Source: a virus (taxonomy: Duplodnaviria > Caudoviricetes). Taken from it: a stretch of 24,377 bases of DNA. Numbering within the stretch: position 1 is the first letter of the stretch; the number at the start of each line of letters is the position of its first letter. The DNA is taken from IMG/VR virus record IMGVR_UViG_3300020044_004943, positions 1 to 24,377 of that record; one strand, written 5' to 3'. Position numbers and translations under genes: made by a program. Shown in pieces: positions 814 to 21,399 of the stretch. The notes under the pieces were generated by a model that ran no database searches, had not been told where the DNA came from, and was given only the letters and a program-made list of their open reading frames with translations.

Positions 814-1167
814 CTAAAAGGGCATCTCATCAATGATTGCAGCAGCAGACTGAACAGGCTGGGCAGTGTTGCCGCTCGGAGTAAACACAGTGCCATTGAT
901 AGACACCTTCACCGACTGACCAGGCACACCATCACGGTTCAACTTCGGAGACCCATCCGGGTTAGTCCAATTATCAATCACAGCCGACAAAGTGCCAGAG
1001 AAAGTTCCCTCAGCGCCCTCACGGAAATCAACCGGGGCCTCAAACCAAGCAGTGTATTTGCGAGTGATAGTTGCCCCATCCTTGCCCTTAGCAAACTCGG
1101 TAACCTCAACACCCTTGTCACCAAAGAAAAGGCGAGTAGCAGTGCCCTGAACCTCGATGCGCGCCAT
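814..1167 (-). CDS. ssb: Single-stranded DNA-binding protein (phage type)
   Basis: 117 aa beta-rich protein ending in the acidic DEMPF tail typical of SSBs; located in the recombination module. Confidence 0.75.
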   Translation of the reverse strand: MARIEVQGTATRLFFGDKGVEVTEFAKGKDGATITRKYTAWFEAPVDFREGAEGTFSGTLSAVIDNWTNPDGSPKLNRDGVPGQSVKVSINGTVFTPSGNTAQPVQSAAAIIDEMPF

Positions 1168-1283
1168 TAGAAGCCACCTCGAACAATCGGACCAGTAGGC
1201 AGATTAGCAGCCTTCTTAGCCTTGCGAGCAGCAGCCTTCGCCTTATGCGTAGGCCACAAAATGCGGTTAGATGATTGAGCCAT
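1167..1283 (-). CDS. 38-aa basic Lys/Ala-rich peptide
   Basis: SD AGAAAGGGAA, ATG at 1283, MAQSSNRILWPTHKAKAAARKAKKAANLPTGPIVRGGF; stop overlaps the ssb start (TAATG). Below the ORF-track cutoff. Confidence 0.75.
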   Translation of the reverse strand: MAQSSNRILWPTHKAKAAARKAKKAANLPTGPIVRGGF

Positions 1284-1589: not shown

Positions 1590-2034
1590 AGCCTAGCGGT
1601 TCTGTAGCAGATTTGTATACCAGACCTGCCTAAGGGTTCTGGAGGGGAAGAGAATGGCCTAATGCAACCACTCTCAAACCTGCCCAGTGGGACTATCGGG
1701 GTTTTGATTCATGGGTGAGGTCTTGCGATGCTCACAGTCTGCGCCAGAACAAACAGCCACAAGGCACCCAGGCAGACTCTATTGGATGCGCCGCTCATTC
1801 TCTGTTGTTCTCTCAACAACTCTTGCCCTAATCTACCGCTTCACCTATTTGTAGGGCGCGCGAAATCGGCAGCATATGACGCTCGATAACCGGCCGGGTG
1901 AGGGTCGGGAAGTTGAATTAGTGTCAGCCTAACGGGCTCGGCCCTCTGACAACCTGCTACACTTAATCTTGCTTGGTTAAGTTTCACAGGATTCCCCCAG
2001 AGTTGTTGGCTGGGGGATTTCTCTTTATTAAGTT
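1590..2034 (-). ncRNA. Candidate ~450-nt structured non-coding RNA or replication-origin element
   Basis: Longest non-coding gap in the window; about 10 stems found by eye, including a long-range 8-bp helix, a GCAA tetraloop and minus-strand G-U extensions; promoter directly upstream at 2041-2062. Confidence 0.5.
1955..2029 (+). ncRNA. Candidate short antisense RNA with extended -10 promoter and intrinsic terminator
   Basis: Plus-strand TGCTACACT at 1955-1963; hairpin TCCCCCAG (1993-2000)/CTGGGGGA (2010-2017) followed by TTTCTCTTT. Confidence 0.35.
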
Positions 2035-2040
2035 GATGCC

Positions 2041-2063
2041 ACTGTAGCACACAATTCAGACAC
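2041..2063 (-). promoter_or_regulatory. TGTCTG-N10-TACAGT promoter
   Basis: Same motif and spacing as at 5051-5072 and 17966-17987; also has the extended -10 TG. Confidence 0.65.
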
Positions 2064-2076
2064 TGATGCAACAAGC

Positions 2077-2104
2077 AAAGAAAACCCCGGCCGTAGCCGG
2101 AGAA
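2077..2104 (-). terminator. Intrinsic terminator after cassette gene 2
   Basis: CTCCGGC-TACG-GCCGGGG-TTTTCTTT (UNCG loop and U tract). Confidence 0.85.
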
Positions 2105-4127: not shown

Positions 4128-5029
4128 TTCTTCCCTTTCTCAACAGTCACATAAGGTGCGCCTGTTCCTCGCTGCTGCCTCTTAGCAACAACAAACTTCT
4201 CACCGTCAACCTCGATGTAAGCAGTCTTAGCCTTGCCCATCTGGTCAATGGTGCGACTCTTCAACTCGGTCAAGGACACAGACAACTCATCTATCTGTGT
4301 AGCGATGTTCACTAAATCTATACCAAGCAATTCTGCAATCTCAACTTCACTGCCATCAATCTCCGGGTTGACTTTTCGCACAGCCTCAAGTGTTGAGGTT
4401 GCGCCATCGAACTCAGGAGGGCGATTGGTTAGAACTCGGTCATGGAAATCACTGACCTTCTCCCAGATGTAGTCTGCCTCAAACTGGTCAAACTCAATCG
4501 GAAACTCTAGATAACTTGAGCCAGCCAGAGCGACTATAAAACCCTGCCGAAAGCCTGTCACATTGAAGTAGTGAAACAACTGCGCTCGATACCCAATAGG
4601 AGGTTCACTGGCCCAGTAGTCGCGGCTGAACTTGATTTCTACAATGCCCCACTCGCCAGTTTCACGGACTCGGTAGACCGCATCCATGTTGGCATGACAC
4701 CATTCATGAGTGCTAGAGGCATAAGTGCCAACTGTGAAAACCTCGAGTTCAGGATGTTCCTCGGCAAAGATTTCCAGAATAGGAGACTCTAGTTTTGTGC
4801 CAAGCCGCATTGACATTGAGGGCTCAACCCGGTCATCAATCTGTCCAGTCGCTTTATAGAATCGCGCCAATGGACTTTCCCAAGGCGAGAAGCCACAGAT
4901 AGCGGCAACCTGAGAACCACCGATTGCGCCAAGTTGATTGCGCAGTTGATGCCATCCATCTGAGCCGTTCTCAAAATCGCCAATAAGCAAAGCATTGCCG
5001 AGAGTCTCGGCTGTTAAGTGTTGAATCAT
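4124..5029 (-). CDS. YqaJ-like (lambda exonuclease family) recombination exonuclease
   Basis: IGGS.VAAI.G.SPW, G..LE, ANMDA, VEIK and Y.AQ motifs; start ATG 5029 after SD GAAAGGGAA, ATGA overlap with the HNH stop. Confidence 0.92.
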   Translation of the reverse strand: MIQHLTAETLGNALLIGDFENGSDGWHQLRNQLGAIGGSQVAAICGFSPWESPLARFYKATGQIDDRVEPSMSMRLGTKLESPILEIFAEEHPELEVFTVGTYASSTHEWCHANMDAVYRVRETGEWGIVEIKFSRDYWASEPPIGYRAQLFHYFNVTGFRQGFIVALAGSSYLEFPIEFDQFEADYIWEKVSDFHDRVLTNRPPEFDGATSTLEAVRKVNPEIDGSEVEIAELLGIDLVNIATQIDELSVSLTELKSRTIDQMGKAKTAYIEVDGEKFVVAKRQQRGTGAPYVTVEKGKK

Positions 5030-5610
5030 TTTTCCCTTTCGACTGGCTTCAGTATAGAGCGAGGGCCAGACATTCCTAATCTCCATTCCATAATGAACCG
5101 TGCCCTTTTGTGATTGTTGCATTTAGCGCAGGCAGCAACCAAGTTACCTATGCTATGCCGGCCCCCTCTTGCAATTGGAATCACATGGTCAATTTGTATA
5201 GAGGTTCGGCTACCGCAATAGAAACAATTGCTCTTGTAGAGTCTCTGTTTCTCTTTATTGGTGACTGCAAAGATTCCGTTATTGACCGCCCTGGCTCTGC
5301 GCCTCGCGCCGCGTTCTCTGGCTTTGGCAGGGTTAGCCAGTGACCACTCCTTAAATAGTCTTTTCACTTGTTCAGGGTGCGCATCTCGATAGGCTTTTGC
5401 TCTTGCCTTGTGCAATTCAGGATTGGCCCTGTAGGCTGCTCGCCTTTGCGCTGCAAGTTGCGGCCTATACTTCTGGCGGTTGATGGCATTTATCTGCCTA
5501 TGACATTCCTTGCACCAACTAAAAAGCCGGTCTGCATTGGTTTGATGCTTGTGATACATCTCCAGTGACAAAGTTTGACCGCATTTAGAGCAGGTCTTAT
5601 ACTGATTCAA
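5026..5610 (-). CDS. Free-standing HNH homing-type endonuclease
   Basis: N-terminal CSKC...CKEC zinc motif, basic helical linker, C-terminal CFYCG..IDHVIPIARGGRHSIGNLVAACAKCN; TTG 5610 follows SD GGAAGGAAG. Confidence 0.9.
   Translation of the reverse strand: MNQYKTCSKCGQTLSLEMYHKHQTNADRLFSWCKECHRQINAINRQKYRPQLAAQRRAAYRANPELHKARAKAYRDAHPEQVKRLFKEWSLANPAKARERGARRRARAVNNGIFAVTNKEKQRLYKSNCFYCGSRTSIQIDHVIPIARGGRHSIGNLVAACAKCNNHKRARFIMEWRLGMSGPRSILKPVEREK
5051..5072 (-). promoter_or_regulatory. TGTCTG-N10-TATACT promoter for the recombination operon, inside the HNH 3' end
   Basis: Exact motif and spacing repeat; lies 21 nt upstream of the exonuclease ATG. Confidence 0.65.
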
Positions 5611-5696
5611 TCGGACTTCCTTCCGGTCATGCCCCAGGCGATTCACAGTCGCGCTGGGGTTTTACTATTTTGAGTCTAGCAGGCTAGGCTGGGCTC
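5611..5696. promoter_or_regulatory. Back-to-back promoters (HNH and whiB) and structured HNH leader
   Basis: Minus TGC-TAGACT (hexamer 5673-5678); plus TAGGCT (5685-5690) 6 nt before the whiB ATG; hairpins at 5632-5659 and 5612-5625. Confidence 0.6.
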
Positions 5697-6005
5697 ATGC
5701 AGATTTTCTCATTCAACAGCGCAGATGCCAGTGATGCCTACCTCGAACTGATGGCAGGCATCCGCAACAATGATGGTGTTGAGTGCGCACAGTTTCCAGA
5801 CATCTTCTTTCCCCATGATTGGGAGTTAGGCACACAGTCGAACAGCCTGCTGGCTAAACAGATTTGTGAGCGGTGCCCGGTCAAGATGTTATGCCTCGAG
5901 TATGCGATGATAGCCGAAGATGAGGCTGGCACCTGGGGCGGCCTTACAGCCTCCGAGCGCAGACAACTGAGGCAACTGTCGCGCCTCGGTTCTAATCCTT
6001 CTTAG
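5697..6005 (+). CDS. whiB: WhiB-family transcription factor
   Basis: Four cysteines (C..PDIFFP..AKQICERCPVKMLC) and GTWGGLT.SER motif. Confidence 0.95.
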   Translation: MQIFSFNSADASDAYLELMAGIRNNDGVECAQFPDIFFPHDWELGTQSNSLLAKQICERCPVKMLCLEYAMIAEDEAGTWGGLTASERRQLRQLSRLGSNPS

Positions 6006-15686: not shown

Positions 15687-16121
15687 CTATCGCTTGGCTA
15701 ATCGGGCCTTGATGTCTGTGGAGGAGATGCCGGCCGTATAAGGAATGTAAACCAAACCAATGGCGCGCTCATCCAGCCAGTCTTGAGTGAACCCCATCTG
15801 CGTGTAATAGTCGCGCCTAGCCCAGTCTGAACCAATTACAATCAGGTCAGGGCAAACCCAGTCAATCGCCATAGTGCTGTCAGCGCCGCCCCAATTTTCA
15901 ATGACCTCATCCACATAGCGGCAAGCCTTGAGCACGGCCCGGCGCTCGGCATAGTTCATGACCAAGCCTTTGCCCTTGTAAGCCTGAATGAACTCATCGC
16001 CGTTCAGACTCACAACAACCTTGCCACCCTTGCCTGCCAACTGCTTGCATCGCTTGAGGAACGCCACATGACCAGAATGAAACAAGTCAAAAGAGCCGCC
16101 AGTGTATACGGTTAGTCCCAT
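15687..16121 (-). CDS. Cytidylyltransferase (TagD/RfaE-like nucleotidyltransferase)
   Basis: YTGGSFDLFHSGH (HxGH), ER..VL.ACRYVDEV, GSDW and GISST motifs. Confidence 0.92.
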   Translation of the reverse strand: MGLTVYTGGSFDLFHSGHVAFLKRCKQLAGKGGKVVVSLNGDEFIQAYKGKGLVMNYAERRAVLKACRYVDEVIENWGGADSTMAIDWVCPDLIVIGSDWARRDYYTQMGFTQDWLDERAIGLVYIPYTAGISSTDIKARLAKR

Positions 16122-16759
16122 CGGTTTGCTCTCCTAGTCTTGAGGGTCCAGCCACCCTGAGTGTAATCACCCTCATGCTCTTTCTGAATCAACAGATTTT
16201 GGTTAGCCGCAAAAGTTCTTTGATTGACATTCTGGTAGCCAGAGTTCAGAGTGCTCGAGTTGTCATGGTGCACAACCGCATCAATGTGTTTGATTGGCAC
16301 ACCGTGATGGCGCACACGGCGCTCAAGGTCATTGTCATCGAAATATAGCGGATAGAAGCGCTCATCATAAAGCCCAACCTTGTCAACCATGCCCTCACCA
16401 AAAACAACCGCAGACCACGGCGTATTGATTTTGAGAAAGTTCAGAGCCTCAGTGTCAACCTCGCTGGCCACAGTCTCGAGGGTGCCCGGCGCAAAGTGTG
16501 CATCATCATTTACCAACAGCCAGTAGGGCGCATACGGTGTTGCCTTGATAATCAGATTCCAAGCGCCTACCAGGCCCAGGCCGTAAGGCACCCGGATGTG
16601 CCAGTGATGCTTCACAAACTCCGAGCGAGGAGACAGCCACTCACCAGTGCCAGAGTTATCAATGATGACAAGGTGCTCAACCGGGTAATCAATCGAGGCA
16701 ATGAGGCGCTCAGCCAGGTCAAACCTTTTGAGGGTTGCAAACCCTACAACCGGAATCAT
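16112..16759 (-). CDS. Glycosyltransferase, GT-A fold (family 2-like)
   Basis: VIIDNS, AWN, LVNDD, VGLYDERFYPLYFDDNDL..R motifs. Confidence 0.88.
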   Translation of the reverse strand: MIPVVGFATLKRFDLAERLIASIDYPVEHLVIIDNSGTGEWLSPRSEFVKHHWHIRVPYGLGLVGAWNLIIKATPYAPYWLLVNDDAHFAPGTLETVASEVDTEALNFLKINTPWSAVVFGEGMVDKVGLYDERFYPLYFDDNDLERRVRHHGVPIKHIDAVVHHDNSSTLNSGYQNVNQRTFAANQNLLIQKEHEGDYTQGGWTLKTRRANRWD

Positions 16760-17943
16760 TTAGCCAACAAGCGGTTGATGACCGGCAGCCAGTGCGACTG
16801 CCAGACAGTCTCAACATCGAACTGTTTAGCGAACTCAACAGCCACCTTGCTAGTCCCTCTATCAGCCTTGTAAGCCTGCTCAAGGGCGTTCACAATGGAT
16901 GGCACTAGAGGTGCTTGCCAAATAGCATTCTGGCCGGCATCCCACATCGGCTGCCCCTCAACCATCCAAGAGTCATCAGCCAACAAGTCAGGGGTTGCGC
17001 CCCAACTTGAACCGATGACGCGCACGCCACACGCCTGGGCCTCGACTGTCGGCACACCAAATCCTTCTCCGTAAGAAACAGCCAGCATCACATCCATAGC
17101 GGTGTAGAGCCCGGCCAAAGTTTCTTGACTCATGCCGTAGCGGTAATCCACAAATGGTGGGAACATTACAGCCTCTTTAGGGATGCCATACGCGGCGAGC
17201 ATCGGCAACAACTGCCAGCCACCCTGTGACCCAATCGGGTCAGTGTGCATATACAGCACCGCGTCAGGATGCTTCTGACGGAAGATGCTAAACGCCAGCA
17301 GGTTCTCGCTAAAAGCCTTGCGGTGGATTAGACCGCTGGCCTTGTTTGCAGCCACAACTCCCACAACAAACTCATCCGTCACACCCATGTAAGCGCGGCC
17401 AGGCTGACCCTCAATAGTCGGGGTCGGCTTAAAAATCTTGGTATCAATACCGTGCGGCACATACTCACACTCAATGCCCTTGGCTTCCATCTGACGCACA
17501 CCATTAGGTGCCATCGCAATCGGGGTCACATTCGGCTTGCGCAAAAACTCCTCAACCTTAGGCGGCATAGTCACATGGTCCAAAGGTGTCCACCAACCCA
17601 TGTTGATTTTGTCCCACTGAGCGCCCTGAATAACCCAGCAGTCATACAACCCAATCAGAGTGTCAGGCAGCCCAGGGTTCTGCGACTTGAAATGAGCATG
17701 ATGCATCGGGCCCACATCATTAGAGTAAGCCTCAGAGCCGCGAGGGTAATGAGGTATCTTGCCAAAGCGAGTCTGGTAAGTTGTAACATTTCCCTCCAGA
17801 CCATAGTTAGACATCGCAGCAGTCTTAGCGCCATCACGCACCAGGCGGTCTACCAGATACTCAGCCTGCTGGCCATAACCTGTCGGCTGACTTGGAGAGT
17901 TAGACCAGACAGAGACCAGGCCCTTGATTTTTGATTTGCTCAT
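16756..17943 (-). CDS. Glycosyltransferase, GT-B fold (family 4-like)
   Basis: PTGYGQQ, VPHGIDT..F.P, LY.AMDV...SYGEGFGVP.VEAQACG (EX7E); start ATG 17943 after SD GAAAGGG. Confidence 0.92.
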   Translation of the reverse strand: MSKSKIKGLVSVWSNSPSQPTGYGQQAEYLVDRLVRDGAKTAAMSNYGLEGNVTTYQTRFGKIPHYPRGSEAYSNDVGPMHHAHFKSQNPGLPDTLIGLYDCWVIQGAQWDKINMGWWTPLDHVTMPPKVEEFLRKPNVTPIAMAPNGVRQMEAKGIECEYVPHGIDTKIFKPTPTIEGQPGRAYMGVTDEFVVGVVAANKASGLIHRKAFSENLLAFSIFRQKHPDAVLYMHTDPIGSQGGWQLLPMLAAYGIPKEAVMFPPFVDYRYGMSQETLAGLYTAMDVMLAVSYGEGFGVPTVEAQACGVRVIGSSWGATPDLLADDSWMVEGQPMWDAGQNAIWQAPLVPSIVNALEQAYKADRGTSKVAVEFAKQFDVETVWQSHWLPVINRLLAK

Positions 17944-17965
17944 GTTCACCCTTTCTTTTCTTATC

Positions 17966-17987
17966 ACTCTAGCAAACACCTCAGACA
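17966..17987 (-). promoter_or_regulatory. TGTCTG-N10-TAGAGT promoter of the glycosylation cluster
   Basis: Third exact copy of the motif and spacing, directly after the capsid terminator. Confidence 0.65.
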
Positions 17988-18028
17988 AAGGGAAACCCCC
18001 CAAAGCCTACGCGCTCTGGAGGGTTTCC
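17987..18028 (-). terminator. Terminator hairpin after the major capsid gene
   Basis: GGAAACCCTCCAGAGC-GCGTAG-GCTTTGGGGGGTTTCC-CTTT with minus-strand G-U pairs. Confidence 0.75.
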
Positions 18029-19408: not shown

Positions 19409-19564
19409 TTAGCGCGTTTCTTTCGCAGCAACTACGCGGACTTCAGTGGCCGCGGTGCTGGAGTTTAGAAGGTCAATCAGTTCCTTGATGGCACCCACAT
19501 CTGGGTCACCAGAGACTTCCTTGATGACTGTGATTGCGGTTGCGATTTGTTCCTTGGTTGCCAT
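19409..19564 (-). CDS. 51-aa head-module protein
   Basis: MATKEQIATAITVIKEVSGDPDVGAIKELIDLLNSSTAATEVRVVAAKETR; TAATG coupling to the protease stop. Not in the ORF track. Confidence 0.75.
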   Translation of the reverse strand: MATKEQIATAITVIKEVSGDPDVGAIKELIDLLNSSTAATEVRVVAAKETR

Positions 19565-21399
19565 TAGTTGCCCATCTCGGCTAGTGCTAACTTCTTCTTA
19601 TATAGAGCCATCACATCGCCGTCAGTTTCTTCAATCTTACCGGCTGATAAGCGTGAGATAACATCTTGCATTAGCGCGCCTTGTTCAGCGTCTAGTTCCT
19701 CGCCAGATTCAATCTTGAGCAGAGCATCTGCTAGAGCGTCTGCTGAGATGCCATCGGTTGAGCGCACAGACACGGTGCCTGAGGTCTGCTCATAGGCAGG
19801 GGTGCTCACAAGGCTAACCTCATAGAGTGAGACATCCTCGAGGTAGCGAGTCTGGCCATCCTGTGACCATGAATCTTTGCGCACAGAAAATCCGAAACTC
19901 ATGGCATCAATCACACCATCGCGCACAAGAACAGCAATGTCATTCCCGAGCGAAGTTTGAGGGAGTGTCGCGGTGACCTTTAGGCCGCGCTCATCCTCAG
20001 TCAACTGGAGTGAACCGTTGCGAGTTGAGGCTAGAGGGTTAGAGGTGTCATGGTTCCACAACAGCATCATGCGGTTGCGTGACTGAAGCGAGCGCTTGAA
20101 AGCGCCAGGCTTGACAATCTCAGTGAAAGGTAGAGGGAGACTCGGCTGATTAAAAAGGGCCGCGTAGCCTGTGAAAGAGCGGCCATCGCCCTCAGCGCGC
20201 AACTCAACATGGGCAGAGCGAACCTCTTTGCCATCCAGCGAGCGGCCCTCAGAGCCCTCTAGGCGTGCCTTAATCTTCCAAGCGGCGCTAAGCCACTTGT
20301 CGCGGTTAGCAATAACAGGTTCAGTCATTGGCTCGCTTTCATTCATTGCATCAATCTTAGCAATAATCTGCTCAGCCTTAGCCTTGATGTCGCTGGTCGG
20401 GTCGGCCGGCTCATCGGTTGGCTGTTCCTCTGGGTGGTCTTGCATCTCTGGCAACTTCTCGGCAACCATCTCAGGCTTAGGGATGCGCTCAAGTTTAAAT
20501 ATGTTGAGAGGCATCACATACTCGGTCGGCTGGAAGATGCCATCCTCGAACTCATACAGGGCAAGCACAGCCTGGTCATCAGATACCTCAACAACCGTTG
20601 CAGCAATCTCAGGGTCCAGCACATTCCAAGATACCCAATCGCCAACAGCCAACTCATTCAGGGCAGCGCGCGTTGCATTAGTTTCCATGTCTTGCTCTTT
20701 TCTTATTCTGGCAACAACACTCTCAGCATATTCAAGAGCGCGCTGGGCTGCTGCCTTGCTAGGGCCTGAGCCCCAAAGCAGGTGAGCAACAACACCAGCC
20801 GAAGGGTAACCCTCCGAGTCAGGGTTAGCATCAGGGGCATCTAAGTCATCTAGGTGGCGTGCAATCCAAGCAGCAATGCGAATCCACTTGTCATCTGACA
20901 CAGTGCCTTCAACCATCAGGCGAGCCTCGCGGATGGTGCGCTCAACAAGCCCATCACCGCCAAGACCCTCGCTGTAATACTCCAGCCCTCGCGCGGCAGC
21001 ATCGCGCATATACTCTGGGGCCTCTTGATTGATTGCTCTCTGCTCTGGCTCAATGTCAGAAGGGTTGACAACCTTGATGCCCAGTGAGGCATAGGCCTCT
21101 CGAGTTGCTGGGTCATTCTCCACAGCAACAATCACACCCTTGGTGGCGAGCAGTTCCTCAGCCGTGGCACGCTTGTAATCCACAGAGTCATCACTAGCCA
21201 GAGGCTTCATGATTAGTCGGCTATAGGTAACACCGGCCGCTGACAGGTCTGCAACTGTTTCATCGCGCTGAGACTCAGGCCGAGCCGTCACAAGATACAG
21301 TGCTCCATTAAGCGACTGCACATAATCCCAGGTCTTATTAATCAGGTCAGAGCCGTTTAGCAGTGTGCCATCAATGTCGCAGATAATAATGTTCGGCAT
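19564..21399 (-). CDS. Multidomain HK97-type prohead protease with N-terminal HAD phosphatase domain
   Basis: N-terminal CDIDGTL, VTAR, K and VEND HAD motifs; C-terminal FTGYAALFN, LLWNHD, MSFGF and EVSLVSTPAY protease motifs. Confidence 0.9.
   Translation of the reverse strand: MPNIIICDIDGTLLNGSDLINKTWDYVQSLNGALYLVTARPESQRDETVADLSAAGVTYSRLIMKPLASDDSVDYKRATAEELLATKGVIVAVENDPATREAYASLGIKVVNPSDIEPEQRAINQEAPEYMRDAAARGLEYYSEGLGGDGLVERTIREARLMVEGTVSDDKWIRIAAWIARHLDDLDAPDANPDSEGYPSAGVVAHLLWGSGPSKAAAQRALEYAESVVARIRKEQDMETNATRAALNELAVGDWVSWNVLDPEIAATVVEVSDDQAVLALYEFEDGIFQPTEYVMPLNIFKLERIPKPEMVAEKLPEMQDHPEEQPTDEPADPTSDIKAKAEQIIAKIDAMNESEPMTEPVIANRDKWLSAAWKIKARLEGSEGRSLDGKEVRSAHVELRAEGDGRSFTGYAALFNQPSLPLPFTEIVKPGAFKRSLQSRNRMMLLWNHDTSNPLASTRNGSLQLTEDERGLKVTATLPQTSLGNDIAVLVRDGVIDAMSFGFSVRKDSWSQDGQTRYLEDVSLYEVSLVSTPAYEQTSGTVSVRSTDGISADALADALLKIESGEELDAEQGALMQDVISRLSAGKIEETDGDVMALYKKKLALAEMGN

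Follow-up and report, generated by a model that had tools for sequence, protein, structure and literature searches.

The window, by which we mean the whole stretch of 24,377 nt that was analyzed, is an entire virus record and encodes a small siphovirus with nearly all of its genes on the minus strand. Read along that strand, the genes specify terminase, portal, protease, capsid, tail, and endolysin proteins, followed by a RecE-like exonuclease, ERF, HNH, SSB, and RusA. The record is probably incomplete, as it spans 24.4 kb compared to 30 to 38 kb in near-complete relatives. The sole credible gene on the opposite strand is whiB (5697-6005, plus strand), and the nearest relatives of the window SSB belong to Microbacterium phages; because of these two features, we infer an actinobacterial host. 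A PHROG scan of 24 window ORFs recognized no initiator, primase, helicase, or polymerase, bearing out an absence that had been pointed to in a preliminary description of this DNA made from sequence alone.

Other parts of the gene map also stand out. An HNH gene (5026-5646) and the start of the RecE-like exonuclease gene overlap, and a 38-amino-acid (aa) Lys/Ala/Arg-rich ORF (1167-1283, minus strand) just upstream of SSB is kept in eight close relatives that include both of the slot types described below. A cytidylyltransferase-like gene and two glycosyltransferase genes between the head and tail genes (15687-18003, minus strand) suggest virion glycosylation, and a 611-aa fusion (19564-21399, minus strand) joins a polynucleotide-kinase-phosphatase-like HAD domain and an unknown domain to the prohead protease. 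The gap between the HNH gene and the RNA element (2125-2340) is a cargo hotspot, as it is in L021, L044, L057, L061, and L062, with contents that vary among DNA methylases, a Mom-like protein, and small ORFs, each with its own promoter and terminator.

The preliminary description had singled out a gap of about 450 nt in the recombination module as a noncoding element. The absence of a credible ORF there held up, since the longest stop-free stretch shifts frame from one family member to the next and, of the 268 gaps in the alignment, 205 have lengths not divisible by 3. A hidden protein gene was considered and rejected: the 77-aa ORF at 1841-2074 and the 53-aa ORF at 1728-1889 have no PHROG match, and no frame stays open across members. 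The conserved core proved smaller than proposed, at about 330 nt. A minus-strand terminator, an extended -10 box, and a separate leaderless promoter for the next gene, all of which had been suggested, are present as consensus matches. The features of the element in window coordinates are as follows.

2085-2102, minus strand: intrinsic terminator-like hairpin with a U tail, which ends the upstream 71-aa gene and insulates the RNA unit.
2041-2049, minus strand: extended -10 box (TG-n-TAnnnT) of the long-RNA promoter, a consensus match, with a predicted start near 2034.
1620-2034, minus strand: predicted RNA II-like transcript of about 415 nt, counted as far as the distal repeat, composed of a variable leader of about 80 nt and the core; based on the promoter, alignment A5, and the helix tests.
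1970-2027, plus strand: predicted antisense RNA (RNA I-like) of about 57 nt, complementary to the leader, with a terminator hairpin (1993-2017) and a U-rich tail (2018-2027).
1955-1963, plus strand: antisense extended -10 box directly before helix P1, a consensus match.
1620-1951, minus strand: conserved structured core, one copy per genome, defined by profile matches and covariation.
1922-1951, minus strand: P1, a stack of two stems that includes a conserved internal loop (97 to 98% of cells paired).
1913-1919, minus strand: conserved AAGUCAA motif ahead of P3 and P4, from alignment A5.
1865-1908, minus strand: P3, with a 7-nt loop in which U2 is invariant and A4 nearly so, and P4, with a 7-nt loop of consensus GUUAGAG.
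1804-1857, minus strand: P5, a variable domain, and P6, with a GAGAG-type loop, from the helix test.
1736-1801, minus strand: pseudoknot domain, in which Pc (1791-1801/1746-1756) encloses Pa (1783-1789/1764-1770).
1772-1778 with 1736-1742, minus strand: pseudoknot stem Pb, formed by the Pa loop strand and a downstream strand, 99.4% paired, with a one-base linker.
1715-1735, minus strand: hairpin P7, with a GYRA tetraloop in most members; in the second lineage, five members have a loop of 7 nt instead.
1679-1685, minus strand: Y1, the proximal copy of a covarying direct repeat and predicted RNA anchor, from the repeat comparison.
1650-1675, minus strand: hairpin P8, between the two repeat copies, from the helix test.
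1625-1631, minus strand: Y2, the distal repeat copy and predicted site of RNA:template-DNA capture, from the repeat comparison.
1590-1598, minus strand: leaderless promoter box of the next gene (an 89-aa Cys-rich ORF with GTG at 1583), a consensus match.

L057 and L041 also have the extended -10 box of the long RNA, at -97, and L001, L021, and L045 have it at about -250; only 7 of 26 members have a strict match upstream of the core. Downstream of the core, a box similar to the leaderless promoter of the next gene was found in 9 of 15 carriers. One subgroup (L001:4621-4749, L021, L045, and L031) has a 42-aa basic ORF between the leader and the core that is absent from the window.

The preliminary description had rested its case on almost continuous base pairing. 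We found that the 474-nt stretch folds no better than its dinucleotide shuffles (z of -0.02 on the plus strand and -0.58 on the minus strand), and among 100-nt windows only those within 1925-2049, which covers the two 5' hairpins, fell below chance (z down to -3.9). Mean folding z scores across the family were -1.8 for the sense strand and -0.8 for the antisense strand. With window z scores of about 0, we rejected single-sequence folding as evidence for the element. The argument from dense pairing therefore fails, and the case for structure rests on comparison among homologues.

Homologues were sought with anchors (RusA, the downstream ORF, SSB, and DNA patterns) and then with iterated profiles. 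Profile iteration yielded 28 nonredundant homologues, to which one phage-like contig in a metagenome-assembled genome (MAG) was added. This contig came from a pattern scan of GTDB genomes that returned 17 stretches, of which 16 were chance matches and one was real; the latter (L138) is the 31.7-kb MAG contig, which looks like a misbinned phage. The core was present in a single copy in all 15 carrier genomes, was absent from all five initiator-type genomes, and was found in two lineages whose head and tail genes are unrelated. For the analysis of pairing we used 17 representatives sharing less than 85% identity, with an average of 51%. Across the 35 pairs drawn from the alignment, 92.9% of cells were paired, compared to 32 to 40% for slid partners, a control that favors structure in that the pairs were derived from the same sequences, and 28 of the 35 showed changes on both sides. 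In a less circular test, ten helices, the tenth of which (Pc) was added to nine others, were more stable in cis (within a phage) than in trans (between phages), each with 0 of 20,000 permutations. The check for covariation among homologues that the preliminary description had called for thus returned ten covarying helices among the 28 homologues, and on this comparative evidence the element is real, conserved, folded, and noncoding.

The helices follow the order P1, P3, P4, P5, P6, the pseudoknot domain (Pc, Pa, and Pb), P7, and P8. The ten stems listed previously all exist as perfect inverted pairs. Five of them are family-conserved helices (1922-27/1946-51, 1825-30/1852-57, 1804-09/1815-20, 1736-42/1772-78, and 1715-19/1731-35, the last with a GCAA loop), and the stem at 1736-42/1772-78 turned out to be one stem of a pseudoknot. 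Two others, the leader hairpins at 1961-82 and 1993-2017, were seen in close relatives only, and the remaining three are not conserved pairing. By our reading of alignment A5, each arm of the proposed long-range helix 1649-56/1796-1803 has a different conserved partner, and neither 1674-78/1703-07 nor 1620-24/1638-42 is conserved as a pair. The preliminary description had missed the direct repeat, the pseudoknot, and three more helices, as well as the paired promoter and terminator on the antisense strand.

Covariation cannot by itself distinguish RNA from single-stranded DNA, a point also made for plasmid motifs in the account given in PMC5737381, and counts of G-U and A-C combinations in the 35 aligned pairs were close (27 versus 20). 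The element could in principle act as folded single-stranded DNA, as an ssi or sso site or a primosome assembly site exposed by transcription. P1, P3, and P4 show no strand preference. In contrast, P8 and Pc rely on G-U pairs and favor the transcribed strand, with P8 more stable on the sense strand in all 17 representatives (mean of -18.0 versus -14.7 kcal/mol). GYRA loops, a pseudoknot, a promoter of its own, and an antisense promoter-terminator pair likewise fit RNA, and we regard a DNA element as very unlikely.

The RNA family appears to be uncatalogued, having neither an Rfam match nor a published description that we could find. Rfam 15 gave no match above the gathering threshold in the window, and a search to an E value of 10 returned five chance-level matches at E values of 3 to 7. 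A blastn search of the window or of member L049 against GenBank phages and plasmids found nothing. Our literature search likewise found no description of the family; subscription papers and the large supplementary catalogues of phage RNA motifs lay outside its scope, and an earlier unnamed listing is possible. Readings as RNase P (from CR-I/CR-V look-alikes), as group I P7, and as an HDV-type fold were rejected, since the supposed partners show no covariation in alignment A5. The core of group I introns and lariat-capping ribozymes has the strand order P15/P3/P7/P9. The pseudoknot strand order of the element (Pc-Pa-Pb...Pa'-Pc'-Pb', then a GNRA hairpin) recalls the lariat-capping ribozyme core. 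Assignment to this class was rejected: the element has a 5- to 6-nt loop instead of a P4-P6 domain, no invariant G-binding pair, and no Rfam match, and it is intergenic.

The strongest functional clue comes from what takes the place of the RNA in related phages. Across 43 mapped loci, 19 carried the RNA, 22 carried a replication initiator, 2 were uninformative, and none carried both. Initiator-type loci pair an initiator with DnaB or a likely loader in the same gene neighborhood as the RNA, which in 14 of the 19 RNA-type loci lies directly before the Cys-rich ORF and SSB. Locus L002, whose flanking DNA is 74% identical to the window, has at this slot a 273-aa initiator and a 137-aa ORF that is likely a loader, judged by position only, as it has no family match. 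L093 has another initiator there, and a larger clade has an O-like initiator with DnaB. PHROG classed the slot ORFs of L002, L093, and L078 as replication initiation proteins, and the next ORF of L078 is DnaB. In an SSB tree, the initiator-type locus L059 (equivalent to L002) nests among the closest RNA-type relatives of the window. Most initiator-type rows form one clade and the tree needs only two changes of slot content, so independent swap events are few.

Searches for replication enzymes in the carriers gave a consistent picture. In six-frame searches, DnaB_C was found in none of 22 carriers, compared to 8 of 10 initiator-type records; phrog_270 in none of 23 carriers, compared to 4 of 5 initiator-type controls; and phrog_2447 in none of 10 near-complete carriers, compared to 2 of 2 controls. 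Prim-Pol, Pol A, and Helicase_C were each found in none of the 10 near-complete carriers, genomes that are at least 90% complete and of which five have terminal repeats. We called 471 ORFs of at least 85 aa in these ten genomes, and PHROG scans of 163 selected ones (67 plus 96) detected no replication enzyme. By these profile searches the carriers have no replication initiator protein, although a very divergent one may be present. GC skew around the element showed no switch in 10 genomes; in G026 (L148-L149) it reached about 0.35 in the tenths that flank the element on either side, compared to about 0.1 elsewhere. Among RNA-type phages, G032 has an RNA ligase and polynucleotide kinase pair (L155:16729-18605); a queuine tRNA-ribosyltransferase-like gene was seen in G006.

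These observations bear on the possibility that the RNA is regulatory or acts in trans, for instance as an antiterminator, a leader, or a host-manipulating scaffold, and that the phages replicate without an origin, by recombination (RecE/ERF or RecT, SSB, and RusA) together with host restart proteins. The carriers examined do have genes for an exonuclease, an annealing protein, SSB, and RusA, and a complex pseudoknotted fold would suit such an RNA. However, initiator-type phages possess the recombination genes no less than carriers do, a separate leaderless promoter serves the next gene, and the two phage lineages have different downstream genes. Exclusion of initiator genes is also not expected of a regulator, and we consider this explanation quite unlikely. 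A partnership of the HNH/OMEGA type was rejected, as the HNH gene also occurs in initiator-type phages, and the two candidate families for an RNA-specific partner protein were rejected on the same grounds; no protein specific to RNA-type genomes was found.

Further evidence comes from the 3' part of the core, where the 6- to 10-nt Y1 segment before P8 recurs as Y2 51 to 61 nt later. The sequence of this repeat varies between phages and matches within each (cis score of 6.9 versus 5.5 of 8; 0 of 2,000 permutations; 22 unique pairs). No fixed partner within the RNA was found at a constant offset for Y1 or Y2. Transitions between the copies were asymmetric, with Y1 G and Y2 A in 15 cases, Y1 U and Y2 C in 1, and the opposite direction in 2, a count that is too high because some of the phages are close kin (about 5 of the 15 G-to-A cases come from the L064 group) and in which 2 of the 22 pairs are misregistered. 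An asymmetry of 16 versus 2 is expected if Y1 in the RNA forms wobble pairs with the complement of Y2, which is the template strand at that site. Alternatively, it could reflect a melting bias, as most other differences between the copies also make Y2 more A/T rich. A precedent exists in ColE1, whose persistent hybrid is formed by an rG stretch of the RNA and a dC stretch of the template according to PMC4412123; in the ColE1 record we located same-sense G6 tracts at 928 and 1175. A ColE1-like pair of 3' motifs, two 5- to 6-mers flanking the last hairpin, was spotted post hoc and dropped as not significant.

The repeat also helps to separate two kinds of RNA-based origin. The folded RNA might not prime at all, serving instead to open the DNA or to recruit the host helicase loader while host primase makes the primers. 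Such an origin would fit the slot exchange and the missing enzymes equally well, the many conserved unpaired loop bases suggest a binding surface, and strand displacement allows ColE1 itself to start replication in the absence of RNase H, as reported in PMC4412123. A concerted repeat with a wobble-type asymmetry points, in contrast, to an RNA-template hybrid at a defined site, and we judge an origin without priming to be unlikely.

The ColE1-like alternative, in which the RNA is anchored on the template and primes, would also give a role to the antisense unit. A promoter-terminator pair on the antisense strand was present in 6 of 28 members, from four groups, compared to 0.27% of 1,500 random 300-nt windows. 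A looser pattern matched 8 of 28 members against a 2% background; the unit was not found in the other 20 of 28 even with this pattern. In the window, the predicted antisense RNA overlaps the 5' end, or leader, of the predicted primer RNA, and ColE1 RNA II has an A-run and hairpin geometry at the same 5' position as the antisense unit. A leader homologous to that of the RNA-type loci L001 and L021 also precedes the initiator gene in L002 (3730-3846) and L093 (4385-4503), where it comprises an extended -10 box, an A-run and hairpin (the antisense terminator), a second hairpin, and a hairpin over the ribosome site. RNA and initiator thus look to be under the same kind of control, of the countertranscribed RNA (ctRNA) type, and because this leader precedes an initiator in both loci, the antisense unit is not diagnostic of primer control. 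As for expression, seven RNA-labeled runs had small shares, and the short Logan contigs obtained from relatives include parts of the element along with many other genes, giving neither strand nor level.

The closest known system is the set of RNA origins that serve extrachromosomal prophages in cluster A mycobacteriophages (Alma, RedRock, Gladiator, LadyBird, and Et2Brutus). According to the main text of Wetzel et al. 2020 (PMC7157519), these origins are necessary and sufficient for plasmid replication, occur in alternation with RepA, and can be dispensed with in lytic growth. Like the window element, for which transcription is predicted, these are ORF-free transcribed regions of actinophages, of similar size, that alternate with a Rep protein (PMC7157519). 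By eye, the origins of Alma, RedRock, Gladiator, and LoneWolf share further features with the window family. An A-run and C/G hairpin stand at the 5' end, an antisense -10 box lies immediately ahead of the first core hairpin, and a hairpin with a 7-nt loop is succeeded by one with the loop GUYAGAG; there are also nested long stems and a 3' direct repeat that flanks a hairpin and whose sequence matches the repeat of members L120 and L123. The antisense -10 box was found in four of seven fetched mycobacteriophage and Gordonia phage origins. The family sequence model matched three of three tested mycobacteriophage origins weakly, at the same place and on the expressed strand (E values of 0.027, 0.062, and 0.78 in 9 kb). 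A structural model of P3 and P4 searched over 486 kb gave nothing significant on these origins (best E value of 2.9), and blastn found no match, so that homology is not statistically shown. The systems also differ: a spacing of 25 nt separates the nearly invariant repeat copies of the mycobacteriophage origins, compared to 51 to 61 nt in the window family, where the copies vary between phages, and the mycobacteriophage origins lie, antisense to parA, beside parABS, which is absent around the window element in its initiator/helicase slot.

Our comparison also turned up features of the published origins themselves. In L169 to L175 (Alma, RedRock, Gladiator, LadyBird, LoneWolf, and Daredevil), we predict an antisense unit resembling RNA I and see a covarying fold together with a direct repeat at the 3' end, none of which the main text of PMC7157519 describes; the term "secondary structure" does not occur in that main text. 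Et2Brutus shares only the 5' leader with the other mycobacteriophage origins and has a different body. In the Gordonia phage Daredevil, the origin body lies between an HNH gene and the terminase gene, with no parA in the 3.2 kb fetched.

This precedent raises the possibility that the element serves only as a low-copy, plasmid-state prophage origin, lytic replication being started otherwise. The motif order does resemble that of the Alma, RedRock, and Gladiator origins, which are dispensable for lytic growth (PMC7157519), no tyrosine integrase was found in 17 records, and antisense copy control would suit a carrier state. On the other hand, no other initiation system was found in the 10 near-complete carriers, and the element sits in the early lytic module, in place of an initiator and DnaB. 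There was also no parA in the gene maps and PHROG scans of the carriers, nor a ParA match among the scanned ORFs; the neighbors are the HNH gene, methylase genes, and the Cys-rich ORF. A role restricted to the prophage state is in our estimation highly improbable.

Other RNA-based replicons invite comparison with the ColE1-like origin that we favor. As in ColE1, there is no Rep protein, a long structured RNA has its own predicted promoter, a short antisense RNA is predicted to terminate at the 5' end of the long RNA, and a same-sense repeat near the 3' end is able to anchor the RNA on template DNA. Neither nhmmer nor the family sequence model found similarity to ColE1 RNA II/RNA I in the origin, and there was no Rfam RNAI match. 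Unlike ColE1, an enterobacterial plasmid, the window is a phage of a probable actinobacterial host with a 330-nt core that contains a pseudoknot; its anchor is a mixed, variable 6- to 9-mer about 55 nt upstream rather than a G6 tract about 245 nt upstream, and its antisense RNA is predicted at about 57 nt compared to about 110 nt. Marine RNA-based (MRB) replicons of Vibrio, as described in PMC3035462, have an ORF-free origin of about 500 bp and a 68-nt antisense RNA that terminates at an inverted repeat bordered by runs of A and T; these are Vibrionaceae plasmids, were compared by description only, and the window RNA has no plasmid match. The ARRPOF, GEBRO, and PAGEV plasmid motifs are large structured motifs that PMC5737381 and PMC12990946 tie to replication regions by genetics or position, and they are among the Rfam 15 families without a meaningful match to the window at E values up to 10. 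The element likely works like the mycobacteriophage origins and ColE1/MRB; we do not class it as a member of either.

Given the slot exchange, the missing enzymes, the conserved fold, the concerted repeat, the antisense unit, and the mycobacteriophage precedent, we put the probability at about 60% that the element in the initiator slot works as a ColE1-like RNA II/RNA I origin, with the repeat anchoring the RNA on the template strand and host enzymes priming. The preliminary description had proposed a ColE1 RNA II-like origin or an undescribed noncoding RNA. That proposal gains from the covariation among 28 homologues, the exchange with an initiator and DnaB, the missing enzymes, the antisense unit, and the actinophage precedent, while its stated basis, the dense folding and the 1649/1803 helix, did not survive. 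That the element is an RNA-based origin of some form, be it ColE1-like, nonpriming, or confined to the prophage, we consider very probable.

In the proposed mechanism, for which the roles of RNase H, Pol I, and PriA follow what is generally known of ColE1 replication, host RNA polymerase would transcribe the RNA of about 415 nt from the promoter at 2041-2049, starting near 2034. During transcription of Y2, the fold of this RNA would place Y1 close to the transcription bubble, and Y1 would base-pair with the template strand of Y2 to give a persistent RNA-DNA hybrid (R-loop). Host RNase H and Pol I would then cut the hybrid and extend the primer, and PriA would load the host helicase, placing the predicted origin at or just beyond Y2. 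The antisense RNA of about 57 nt would bind the leader and so set the frequency of initiation, providing copy control. Both transcripts, the R-loop, the pairing of Y1 with the template, the use of host RNase H, Pol I, and PriA, and the antisense control are all inferred steps. A bolder version, to which we give somewhat less than an even chance, is that these phages have no replication protein at all, that a 330-nt pseudoknotted RNA is their sole initiator, lytic growth included, and that Y1 is a freely changeable guide that pairs with the template at Y2.

RNA-initiated replication is already known from ColE1, the MRB plasmids, and cluster A mycobacteriophages, in the last case for prophage maintenance only. 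Here, an uncatalogued RNA family takes the place of initiator and helicase genes in abundant small lake phages that belong to two unrelated virion lineages. An RNA origin, if true, explains how these phages replicate without a visible replication gene. If the RNA is indeed the sole initiator, it would represent a family of RNA initiators that is either the third independent one or deeply diverged and that can be swapped as a module for a lambda-O-like initiator and DnaB, and the model would also explain the uncharacterized RNA origins of mycobacteriophages. The covarying repeat offers a precise handle on template capture by a primer RNA, and the motifs in common extend to cultured phages such as Alma and Gladiator. 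Finally, a protein-free origin of 0.5 kb could serve as a compact actinobacterial vector.
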